Shown piece after piece: positions 8,803 through 64,000 of a stretch of 64,000 bases of DNA. The DNA lies in contig OZ024744.1 in NCBI GenBank assembly GCA_964016885.1, positions 49,352,001-49,416,000 of the forward strand, read 5' to 3'. The notes under the pieces are model-generated. The model was given only the letters and a program-made list of their open reading frames with translations, ran no database searches and was not told the DNA's origin. The translations under genes were made by a program, and so were the position numbers. Origin of the DNA: Eledone cirrhosa. Lineage: Eukaryota. Position 1 is the first letter of the stretch; each line of letters begins with the position of its first letter.

Positions 8803-9059
8803 ATATCACATAAGAAACGGAGAATCAGTGGTGCGACGAATGAGATTTATTAGACATATTACAATCGTTTCTCTGGCGACCAGTTCCAGGCATGCCTGGA
8901 ACTGGTCGCCAGAGAAACGATTGTAATATGTCTAATAAATCTCATTCGTCGCACCACTGATTCTCCGTTTCTTATGTGATATTATACTCTGCTCTGTAAG
9001 AGCATCGAGTGCTCAAATGGCATACCACTTACGGATGCTTTAAGCATCCCACACTAATT
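8803..9059 (+). repeat. Perfect 180-bp palindrome (8803-8982) plus ~75-bp tail in a TA tract; PLE-type foldback
   Basis: Centre cagg CATG cctg at 8892/8893 with no spacer; the right arm carries an HHR 3' half, GAAAcgattgTA. Confidence 0.9.
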
Positions 9060-9122
9060 ATATATATATATATATATATAGACATTAGTGTATATGTGTG
9101 TGTGTGTGTATCAGTAACTTAC

Positions 9123-9220
9123 CTCATTTCCATGGATATTCCCAATATATTTGACGTGAGGCTTAAGGGTTATGTGTTTATGCACTGATTCCGAGATAAT
9201 TAGAACCAAAAGAGGGTTAT
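9123..9220 (-). CDS. CPM: CPM-like exon with HGNE zinc-binding motif
   Basis: DNPLLVLIISESVHKHITLKPHVKYIGNIHGNE. Acceptor tgtctttcag, donor gtaagt; 98 bp, phase 1 to 0, in frame with both neighbours. Confidence 0.93.
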
Positions 9221-9499
9221 CTGAAAGACAAATTATGAAAATGAAAGGATTAATGGTATTTCTAAAATGCATGTGTGTATGCATGCATATGTGTATGTAT
9301 GTATATATGTATACACTCTTTCTTTCTCTTAATCTCGAGTTTATATTTGACTGGCCACCTTCCTTGTGGCAAAGTTGTAAAGAAAAGGAAATTTTTGTCA
9401 TCTGTTGTGCAATTTTTCATTTTTTAAATCGTAAGGATGTTTTGAAGGTCCCAGATATCACAGTCATTTGTAGCTTATGAATTAAGGAGCTGTGATCTT

Positions 9500-9800
9500 C
9501 TAAGAATCCAAGTTCAGTTATACTTTCATCCTGTAGCTCTGATAATAATAGATATGTAATTAAACATGTCTTAGATACTGGATCAGCAAAATCAATGGTC
9601 TGTAGATATCCTCCTTCTCTGGAATTTTTTTTACCATATTGACATCAAACAATGTGGTAAACTGATTTCTACAACAGCGCATGTTTTTAATGTGTGACCC
9701 CACGCAACAATATCAGACTGGTTGTGATTCAATTTTGCAACAATTTATATTTCTAGGTTCCACCAGTATTCATTTGAGCCATTAGTCTCAAAATATTCCT
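9500..9800 (-). mobile_element. R4/Dong-like LINE remnant, restriction-like endonuclease region
   Basis: EYWWNLEI*IVAKLNHNQSDIVAWG...CAVVEIS...DVNMVKK..EKEDIY resembles the PD..D/E-K RLE motif. Confidence 0.65.
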
Positions 9801-9829
9801 AGCTCTTTATTGTTATTTTCATCTTCCCT

Positions 9830-10841
9830 AATATGCCAAATCAGGAGAATAGGGAGAATGGTCAACCAGTTCAAAACCAGTCACGTACAGCAGTCATTGA
9901 AACGAAGGACTTGTGTGCTGGAGCATTGTCCTGGTGAAACAAGACCTCTTTGTCAGTTGTCCTGGGTGTTTGGTCTTGATAGCCTTTCATAACTGCCTCA
10001 GCAAATTGGCATTTATGGTGTGGTCCTTTTGAAGATACTTAATAAACACAATGCCTTTTGCATCCAAAAACTCTGAAGCCATCACCTCCCTTGCAGATTA
10101 AACAACCTTGGACTTCTTTGGAGCAGGTAAGGAGGGGTATTTCTACTTCATGGATTGTCTCTTTATCTTTGACTTAAAGTGATGAACCCAACAGTCATCC
10201 TGGGTTAGGAAACATTCAAGGAAACCAGCTGGATCTGCCTCGAACATTGTTAGATTTTCCTGTGATGTGATTAGCTTAGTGCCCTTTTTATCAGGTGTCA
10301 GAAGACGTAGCACCCTCCTTTGTCATGCCAAGTTCATTGTGTAGAATATTCTCAACTCTTTCATGGGATATGCTAATAGCATTGGTTATTAGATTTATAG
10401 TCAATTGCCTGTCATCCATCACCATGTGGTGAACACAATCAATGTTTTCCTCAGGTGGCAGTTGCCGGATGTCCAGACCTAGAGTCATCATCTTCAAGAT
10501 TTTCCCTTCCCCTCCTAAATTCAGCTTCCCACTTTTGCACTGTTGTTAAAGCTGGAGCATCATCCCCCAATGGAATAACCATGTCTGCATGAATGTCCTA
10601 GAAGGCTAAACCCTTTTCTGCAGGTACTTGGTAACACCACAATGCCAATTTTTGTCCATTTCTAAGAGAAATTGCTACTAGTTACTTTTGAAGTCTTCTT
10701 TGAACAGTCAGATGCCAGTTTACCTAAAAAGAAACAATGCAGTTATTAATAAGAAGAGTTGAAATCAATGCAAGCAAGATTTCACAGCTCTAGCATCACT
10801 CCTTCATAGACACCCTATGAAATTTTCAGCCCACCCTCATA
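9830..10841 (-). mobile_element. mariner transposon remnant
   Basis: TIR-like TA-TGAGGGTGGGCTGAAAA at the right end; IDCVHHMVMDDRQLTINLITNAISISHERVENILHNELGMTK HTH; HSPYSPDLA motif near 9840. Confidence 0.88.
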
Positions 10842-10842
10842 T

Positions 10843-61349: not shown

Positions 61350-61559
61350 ATATACATATATATATATATATATAAATATATATATATATATATATATATA
61401 TATATATATATATATACATGCCCCGGAATATAGCTAAACTGGAATATACACCTTTTTTCTGCATTTCGTTGAGCACCACTCTGTTGTAAGCTGACATTCC
61501 ACTACACGGTACATAACACAGTGTGCTGGAAAACATTAATGCACTCGTGCATATTAAAT

Positions 61560-62421
61560 TATATATATATATATATATATATATGTATATATATATATAT
61601 ATGCATATATATATATGTATATATGTATATATATATATATATATATATGTATATATATATATATATGCATATATGCATATATATATATGTATATATATAT
61701 ATATATATATGCATATATATATATGTATATATGTATATATGTATATATATATATATATGTATATATATATATATATATATATATATATATATATATATAT
61801 ATACATATGTATATATATATATGTATATATATATATATGTATATATATATGTATATATATGTATATATATATGTATATATATATATGTATATATATATAT
61901 ATATATATATGTATATATATGTATATATATATGTATATATATATATATATATATATGTATATATATATATATATATATACATATATATATATATATATAT
62001 ATGTATATATATATATATATATATACATATATATATGTATATATATATATATATATGTATATATATATATATATATATATATATGTATATATATATATAT
62101 ATATATATATATATATGTATATATATATATATATATATATGTATATATATATATATATATATATATATATATGTATGTATATATATATATATATATATAT
62201 ATATATATATATATATATGTATATATATATATATATATATATATATATATATATATATATATATATATATATGTATGTATATATATATATATATATATAT
62301 ATATATATATATATATATATATATATATATATATACATAAATATATATATACATATACACATATATATATACATATACATATATATATATATATATATAT
62401 ATATATATATACATATATATA
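61560..62421. repeat. About 860-bp interrupted (TA)n tract
   Basis: Seen directly. Confidence 0.98.
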
Positions 62422-62785
62422 TTTCGTTTCTGAATTTGTTTAGCAAGATTCTTTGTCTGAAAACGTGTGTTGAAACCGATGTTGTTATACTTTGGGAGGG
62501 TCATGTTGCCAATAAGAAACACATGCACCAGTTGCTTTCACTTCAATTTATTATAATAAATTTATAAATTTAGAAATTTAGACATTTCCGGTTGGTTGGA
62601 TGGTTCCACAACCAGATGGTTGTATATATATTGTCAAAGTTCTTTCGTCACACATTCTGTTAGCTCTTCAGTGACTGGGGCTTCTTTTCTTTGTTTTTGT
62701 GCCTCTCCTTTGTTCTGTCCTACGCCATCTTGTTTCTGTGTGTGTGTTTCTTATTGGCAACATGACCCTCCCAAAGTATAACAAT
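62422..62785 (-). mobile_element. PLE-derived foldback (51170-51540 family)
   Basis: Tail 62422-62480, long arm with HHR ~62633-62675, short inverted arm 62740-62785. Confidence 0.87.
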
Positions 62786-63079
62786 ATATATATATATATA
62801 TATATACATATATATATATACCTATATATATACATATATATATATATATATATATATACCTATATATATACATATATATATATATATGTATATATACATA
62901 TATATATATATATATATATATATATATATATACATAATACCTATATATATACATATATATATATATATATATATATATATATATATATATATATATATAC
63001 ATATACATAATACCTATATATATACCTATATATATATATATGAGGTATAAGAATCAAAGAACTGTTCAAAACATTATTG

Positions 63080-63126
63080 TGCTTACAGCTGTTTCCTCCA
63101 AACCGAGGTTTGGATTCTTCGGAGCA
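63080..63126 (-). ncRNA. Hammerhead motif with CCGAAGA core variant
   Basis: Minus strand: tgct CCGAAGA a tccaaacc tc ggtttgga g GAAA cagctg TA agca. Confidence 0.65.
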
Positions 63127-63917
63127 ATTTATTAATGCATGGACAGTTATATGACCTCCTTTTCAGCCGAGAGACATACCAATACATATTAAAACATTGA
63201 TACATATTCAAACATTGTGGGTCAACATTCATTACAGAATTTAGAGTGGCAGTACACACTTCGAGATTACATTTATATTAATAGGTACAATCAAAAATCA
63301 AAAATATAGGTTAAAATACAACATGGAGATAAGCGGTTATATAGTGCAAATGCTCTGTAAATCATCTGATGTTTTTACATTGAGCTACTTAACTTACTGG
63401 TAATAAGGTAGTAATACATTACTGCCTACCACTATTTAGGGTGTGTGTAAAATACTTATAACTGCTTAAGGTTTTGTATTTACATAACCATAAATAGTAT
63501 AACTAATACTATATATATATATATATATATATATATATATATATATATATATATATATATATATATATATATATACATAATACCTATATATATACATATA
63601 TATATATATATATATATATATATATATATAAAACGAAGGAAATGTGGTAAGGAACCAGGTGGGCCATAACGCACCAAAGTACTTGGGGTCTTACTTGTTC
63701 CTATATATATATATATATATATATATACATATATATATGTACATATATATATACATATATATATATTTATATATATACATATATATATGTACATATATAT
63801 ATACATATATATATATTTATACATCTATATATATATATATATATATATATATATATATATATATATATATATATATACATATATATATATATTTATATAT
63901 ATATTTATATATCTATA

Positions 63918-64000
63918 TTGTTATACTTTGGGAGGGTCATGTTGCCAATAAGAAACACACGCACCAGTTGCTTTCACTTCAATTTATTATATATTTATAA
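63918..64000 (-). mobile_element. Start of another copy of the PLE 3'-end family
   Basis: ttgttatactttgggagggtcatgttgccaataag..., as at 21977. Confidence 0.85.

Follow-up and report, generated by a model that had tools for sequence, protein, structure and literature searches.

Penelope-like elements (PLEs), the sister group of telomerase, have inverted repeats and a one-sided tail whose origin is named as an open question (PMC8557442, PMC11167929). Insertions of endonuclease-positive (EN+) PLEs that combine an inverted pseudo-long terminal repeat (pLTR) with a one-sided tail have been published, for example Pen2a_Av (PMC3846280, PMC8557442). One PLE protein, Poseidon PAc of Anolis, was shown to cut and extend both strands of its target; it has a predicted dimeric form, and it initiates at two internal sites of the RNA between which the tail lies (PMC11167929). 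Here we analyzed a window of 64,000 nucleotides (nt) from the 3.0-Gb genome assembly of Eledone cirrhosa (contig OZ024744.1, positions 49,352,001 to 49,416,000), in which an earlier note had described eight asymmetric foldbacks of about seven sequence families. We found that each family has two fixed outward ends, and that the two arms of one insertion nearly always use one of each.

The window foldbacks were checked by self-BLAST after simple-repeat masking and by family mapping. Results showed that all eight were real: an inverted arm and an unpaired tail were recovered at 8/8 sites, arm-to-arm identity was 86-100% in the seven foldbacks scored, and the eight sorted into seven repeat families, A-G, much as the earlier note had it. 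Below, d is the distance from a family's 3' end, T is the tail end, and S is the tail start. The insertions were as follows.

8798..9058, plus strand: family C head-to-head insertion; S arm 8798-8882 inverted, T arm to 9058, tail ~72 nt.
15535..16296, plus strand: family E insertion; S arm 15535-15824, T arm 15830-16296, tail ~175 nt.
21973..22409, plus strand: family B (Neptune-type PLE) insertion; S arm 21973-22121, T arm 22121-22409, tail 58 nt.
26103..26681, plus strand: family F (retrozyme-like tandem unit) insertion; S arm 26103-26332, T arm 26353-26681.
26832..26978, minus strand: family G (old Hydra-type PLE) insertion; T arm 26832-26923, S arm 26926-26978.
36683..36896, plus strand: family A (Hydra-type PLE) insertion; S arm 36683-36743, T arm 36743-36896, tail 85 nt.
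46595..46979, minus strand: family D insertion; T arm 46595-46799, S arm 46812-46979.
62420..62787, minus strand: family B insertion; T arm 62420-62735, S arm 62738-62787.

The tail lies on the left in three of the eight (26832, 46594, 62422). The foldback at 15536 extends to ~16296, beyond the end first given for it, and at 26832 the arm touches a (GA)n run, with TA only beyond that run.

To look beyond the window, we searched the genome with each family and examined 30 loci apiece. For family A, 30 further loci fetched with the whole foldback and 39 wider loci were added; families A and B were also sampled at 20 loci each anchored on an open reading frame (ORF), and an unselected sample comprised 80 stretches of 10 kb. 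Outward ends were bimodal in each family, with T at d0 and S at d85 in A, d58 in B, d72 in C, d80-87 in F, d69-78 in G and ~d175 in E. In D the S position was d36-57; that is, the start of its tail-less arm (family of 46594) spreads over ~36-57 nt from the 3' end rather than falling on one base. The earlier idea of a single fixed end thus gave way to two. Its companion claim, that the short arm stops at the base where the tail begins, survived as a fixed S end per family, but the arm lacking a tail need not be the shorter. Tails in the seven families measured 36-175 nt, and their folding revealed no common strong structure (z from +1.4 to -2.4 against mononucleotide shuffles). The EN+ PLE footprint of inverted arm, one-sided tail and microsatellite target was present in all seven families, for E on few clean cases.

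The proposed targeting of TA microsatellites was borne out. A run of (TA)3 or more lay no more than 16 nt from 455/513 family ends (A, B, C, F, G), versus 9.6% of random positions. In a comparison with empty sites, made to see if insertion itself creates the TA runs, only 5/103 insertions were informative, and in four of these TA was already present at the empty site. Several PLE-type families were found chained in one TA run (L153, L172, L086, L158, L177), each chained insertion leaving TA at both ends for the next one.

T and S ends were about equally common (25 and 26 in family A), and independence with equal T and S ends predicts that half of the insertions would be T/S. We scored the pairing in loci that had not been fetched with the query of the family concerned. 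These held 49 head-to-head insertions, two of which were the window's own copies; dropping seven of the other 47 with an end at neither site left 40 classifiable. Of these, 39/40 were T/S, one was T/T and none was S/S (p ~4e-11, calculated by hand, against 50%; 1.9e-11 with one borderline case included). The 39 ORF-anchored loci of family A comprised one duplicate, 19 that were complex or without two readable ends, and 19 clear cases, 17 of which were T/S (11 with an S arm and a T end, 6 the reverse), with one T/T and one S/S (p = 3.6e-4); the complex loci include a possible short S/S insertion (L397) that we left uncounted. Among 20 ORF copies of family B, eight ended at T and eight at S, and all five with a visible 5' arm used the other site there, as read from 1.5-kb flanks. 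Over all two-piece insertions examined, selected loci included, the tally was 161 T/S, 5 T/T and 2 S/S, and 30 had an end elsewhere.

Much of this resembles EN+ PLEs in print (PMC3846280, PMC8557442), which share the head-to-head arms, the tail at one end, the partial tandems and, for Hydra and Naiad, the (TA)n targets. Tails there are 30-40 nt, as against 36-175 nt in the E. cirrhosa families, and the tail is described as optional, whereas here one tail per two-ended insertion comes close to a rule. Poseidon PAc (PMC11167929) is similar in its two reverse transcriptase (RT) start sites bounding the tail, in cutting and extending both strands, and in its AT-rich target; it differs in that neither coupling of site to strand nor start-site homology was reported, and no tally of end pairs in genomic copies was found there. 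Our literature searches, outside of which subscription papers and supplements largely fell, did not find a one-T-one-S rule, arms of shared source, a PLE footprint on an ORF-less unit, or a PLE passenger bearing a transfer RNA (tRNA). The architecture itself is published, and the pairing rule, the shared-source arms and the ORF-less-unit footprint are absent from the literature found.

The arms themselves carried further evidence. In the 161 T/S pairs the S arm reached further in 45, the T arm reached further in 45, and the two were within 10 nt of each other in 71; the T arm never reached the S site in 8 pairs, and in ORF-anchored loci of family A whole ORFs lay on the S arm opposite T arms as short as 42-458 nt. 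The two arms of an insertion shared non-majority bases at 0.4-2.3% of sites, compared with 0.06-0.4% in permuted pairs, a 5-10x excess. In each of the five families scored, the observed value exceeded the highest among 300 permutations; the test failed for family G. These shared bases indicate that the arms of one insertion come from one source copy. Centers of 168 insertions, judged from BLAST ends, comprised 83 overlaps, 14 blunt joints and 71 with extra bases. The central junction differed from copy to copy, and both arms read as antisense complementary DNA (cDNA) growing inward from a target end. Template bases were reiterated at arm starts: several copies of A carry (TTTA)n there, and 8/8 S ends of G carry (GA)n. 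By eye, TA-like bases stand just past T in tandem copies of A and F, and just past S in A, B, C, E and F.

We propose, with a probability of about 0.72, that a head-to-head insertion arises when the two cut strands of an AT-rich target both prime reverse transcription on a single RNA, the first at one of the sites T and S and the second at the other. Two coupled primings on one RNA, one per site, would be the simplest reading of these data. The PLE enzyme, likely dimeric, would assign one start site to each strand, and primers would be seated by TA-like microhomology of 3-6 nt. The two cDNA 3' ends would then be united by end-joining at a variable center. Many of the short palindromes may have been produced by run-off at a transcript start within the pLTR, and not by random truncation, and the hammerhead unit at 26109 and the tRNA unit at 46594 would be copied in trans by the same kind of enzyme. 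L1 twin priming is a familiar relative, in which the second target strand primes on the RNA and microhomology marks the inversion junction. Here, in contrast, the second site is fixed, the arms overlap to give palindromes, and either arm can be full length.

A different history would have a cDNA start at T, fold back, copy back to S, and join the target through TA microhomology. Arkhipova et al. 2013 (PMC3846280) indeed read head-to-head arms as self-priming on an antisense template, and such a route would cover the shared variants, the palindromic centers and the one-T-one-S rule, with microhomology present at S. Yet it needs an S arm no longer than the T arm, and the S arm reached further in the 45 pairs noted above, up to whole ORFs opposite short T arms; bases reiterated at the S end also suit a start, not a stop. 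A cDNA that folds back could yield such arms only with a deletion afterwards. Since the tail-less arm is often the longer and the tailed arm falls short of S in 8 pairs, a template switch by a finished cDNA is disfavored and we consider fold-back improbable. The fixed arm end, which the earlier note had taken for a priming or a template-switch point, is likely a priming site. It is also conceivable, although unlikely in our view, that the strands prime on two separate RNAs of the same source, with T and S each assigned once by a complex that is asymmetric or by steps in sequence. This would spare two polymerases a shared stretch of RNA and suits every tally; the rare variants shared by the arms, so far above permutation, are simpler with one molecule, but could arise from two if few loci are active at once.

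That the short palindromes are units amplified in fixed form, like miniature inverted-repeat transposable elements (MITEs), or are sequencing chimeras, is very improbable. Family searches did return hundreds to thousands of candidates each (these are not copy numbers), and the insertions are superficially palindromic. Against this, the center varies from copy to copy, the ends are asymmetric, and three families run into RT/GIY-YIG ORFs. Identity with MITEs or DNA transposons was rejected in that every family had asymmetric ends and variable center and length, in place of symmetric terminal inverted repeats and uniform length. An assembly artifact was ruled out as well: the arms have diverged, and raw Illumina reads from three other samples repeatedly contain strand-switch joints and have TA directly after the S site in ~1,800-2,400 reads per sample (both read at the level of the family, not the locus).

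Several observations weigh against two coupled primings on one RNA. In vitro, no difference in start site was seen between strands, and no homology of the cut DNA with the start site (PMC11167929); in A, B, C, E and F, by contrast, TA-like microhomology is visible by eye. Shared variants could also reflect conversion between the arms, or a pair of RNAs transcribed at one source locus, and deletion at the palindrome center after insertion could change arm lengths. Exceptions to the pairing exist, namely the five T/T and two S/S among 168 two-piece insertions. No ORF is tied to C, D, E or F, whose enzyme we infer from the footprint alone. At the family A arm-stop base, 7/15 arms cut there have a preceding G, which in five cases is explained by the partner arm; a cap origin of the G at this stop is weakly supported.

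This stop lies at d147-164, where 16/31 S arms and 11/31 T arms of family A end, compared with at most three in each adjacent 18-nt window (foldback-selected loci left out). It adjoins what we take to be an initiator-like motif, TTAGT, ~205 nt upstream of the ATG. Of the start sites examined, 7/7 in families A, C, E, F and G were followed after 2-9 nt by an RCUC...GAGY stem, compared with 0/3 in B and D and a background of 1-2.5%, a contrast inflated by the motif having been defined on the same sites. By inference, the stem would tie the orphan families C, E and F to Hydra-type enzymes. We advance a fuller scheme tentatively, at somewhat short of even odds: an enzyme dimer bound to a single RNA at its tail may prime both target ends simultaneously, using one site for each, and in Hydra-type elements the RCUC...GAGY hairpin downstream of each start would guide it; the short palindromes would be pairs of strong-stop-like run-off products from the pLTR start, any RNA with both sites, such as a hammerhead circle or a unit bearing a tRNA, would travel as a passenger, and telomerase-like slippage during priming would write new (GA)n and (TTTA)n runs into the junction.

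PLE ORFs were reached from 3/7 families, A, B and G. The description of the palindromes as extremely truncated PLE insertions stands for these in its PLE origin, but does not fit 26109 and 46594, which are ORF-less tandem units rather than truncations. Likewise, the link of 36683 to the terminus at 52466/61348 is real in sequence, but its supposed Naiad parent is not: we rejected Naiad for family A on domain order, RT being followed by GIY-YIG with no N-terminal GIY-YIG before it. In full copies of family A the tandem unit is 3,261 nt long, and the ORF (L384) encodes 709 aa with RWR, DKT, a CNC-X5-C linker and no CCHH. Their GIY-YIG domain had no Pfam match; in translations read by eye it shows CxxC and CxH beside conserved E and N. 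A motif scan and Rfam found no canonical hammerhead in the A pLTR, and inspection by eye suggests a non-canonical hammerhead-like variant with a CAGAAGA core and a 3-bp helix II. By domain order and motifs, and not by a tree, family A is a Hydra-type PLE. The Hydra clade has a C-terminal GIY-YIG, RWK and DKT, CxCX5C and no CCHH, and its members are generally <3 kb (PMC8557442). Families A and G resemble it in the C-terminal GIY-YIG, the CxCX5C linker and the TA targets, and A also in RWR, DKT and the lack of CCHH; unlike it, family A has a 3.26-kb unit and only the non-canonical motif. For family G, 2/30 copies (L197, L210) run into a decayed ORF 29-34% identical to that of A, with a C-terminal GIY-YIG and the same linker, which marks G as an older Hydra-type PLE.

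The ORF of family B has an RT with YVDD and DKSG, a CX4CxxC linker and, C-terminally, a GIY-YIG domain with two Cys and two His (CCHH) by eye (Pfam E = 0.0097, under the cut-off). Motifs rather than a tree assign it as a Neptune-type PLE. The reported match of 21975 and 62422 to a PLE 3' end was confirmed by self-BLAST to 50204-51538. A separate family (50069-50200; L225, L112, L284) has the terminal part of B, with arm start and tail, on another upstream body, and is possibly a non-autonomous partner of B.

Families C, D, E and F had no contiguous PLE ORF upstream, only separate neighbors (tblastn, 30 copies each). Family F is an ORF-less tandem unit of ~500-518 nt whose tail reads into the next unit in 6/30 loci (L163, L164, L167, L177, L154, L175). 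It carries a type I hammerhead, represented in the window by one motif.

26351..26432, plus strand: family F type I hammerhead motif; helices I-III, CUGAUGA and GAAA core, GUC triplet.

Over 13 copies, 94% of cells were paired, versus 22-39% in slid controls; no compensatory change was found in these copies, and Rfam gave no hammerhead match. In one F subfamily (26351-26432), eight loop bases of helix II exactly complement eight loop bases of helix III, which may form a kissing contact. Animal non-LTR retrozymes are circles of 170-400 nt (PMC7229834); they share with F the ORF-less tandem unit and the type I hammerhead. We consider F retrozyme-like on its sequence, with a unit length outside their range. 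A preprint argues from co-occurrence and pLTR similarity that PLEs mobilize retrozymes (bioRxiv 10.64898/2026.07.22.740005), to which F adds a two-ended PLE footprint. Hammerhead scans were negative for D, E and G; family C gave no more than one weak candidate of 3 bp.

Family D is a 260-nt ORF-less tandem, a permuted unit with a tRNA-like segment (40.7 bits against the Rfam tRNA model) that ARAGORN called in 6/13 loci with three different anticodons; a T5 run immediately follows it. Most D arms end at d140-151, within the portion of the tRNA-like segment that corresponds to the 3' acceptor and T-arm, and a few at the 5' end of the segment, a distribution biased by query length (L091-L120). 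Comparable known repeats are the tRNA-derived short interspersed elements (SINEs) and the schistosome Sm-alpha repeats. Family D resembles these in a tRNA-like segment, here with variable anticodon, and differs in its tandem permuted unit, its PLE-type ends and the hammerhead not found in it. It was rejected as a SINE, since its ends are of PLE type, T and S, without the 3' end of a long interspersed element (LINE) and its poly-A or simple-repeat tail. Family C extends at least 850 nt upstream as non-coding sequence in two copies (L071, L246) and its parent ORF was not reached; extensions of 1.1-1.6 kb at four loci (L062, L064, L067, L068) proved to be host flank of a local duplication with no PLE ORF. 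The C arms pile up at ~245 nt, by eye, which coincides with the reference end. Family E is older, and neither an ORF nor a tandem unit or junction was found for it.

The window is intronic, in a gene that resembles a carboxypeptidase (a single exon-like match, Pfam E = 0.007), and contains these other pieces of the families.

27874..28183, minus strand: family B arm ending at S; tailed partner not seen.
43534..43573, minus strand: family D short arm with its end in the S zone, adjoining (TA)n.
46731..46888: two inverted tRNA-like copies of family D, 46731-46801 on the minus and 46818-46888 on the plus strand; 37.8 and 40.7 bits against an Rfam gathering score of 29.
50204..51538, plus strand: 5'-truncated family B copy; C-terminal GIY-YIG fragment, 3' untranslated region, hammerhead core near 51335, T end.
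52466..55118, minus strand: 5'-truncated family A copy; T end at 52466, RT then GIY-YIG ORF fragment 55062-53605, 36-nt inverted S arm at 55083-55118.
59227..61348: family A head-to-head copy; ORF-bearing long arm 59227-61150 on the minus strand, 211-nt T arm 61137-61348 on the plus strand.
63915..64000, minus strand: family B arm ending at S and running off the window end.

Further structures were observed. A ninth foldback adjoining TA lies at 3140-3637 (arms 3195-3637, 85% identity, tail probably on the left) and belongs to a further family, with a second piece at ~55913-56205. At 7176-7290 is a decayed foldback of another abundant short family, present in many examined loci. The palindrome at 35845-36048 is a member of a high-copy short tandem repeat family, and that at 8219-8274 had no other copy in the examined loci. 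A long inverted duplication (42699-45425; 409-nt arms, 94%) lies within an RTE-like LINE and adjoins a TA run. Finally, a separate GIY-YIG ORF fragment at 18476-18958 (Pfam E = 5e-5) represents another PLE family starting at a TA run.

The near-strict rule of one T and one S, which spans autonomous and ORF-less families, makes a sharp prediction for the in vitro system. The PLE footprint on the hammerhead unit of family F lends direct support to the mobilization of retrozymes by PLEs, and palindromes that look like MITEs should be annotated with the PLEs.

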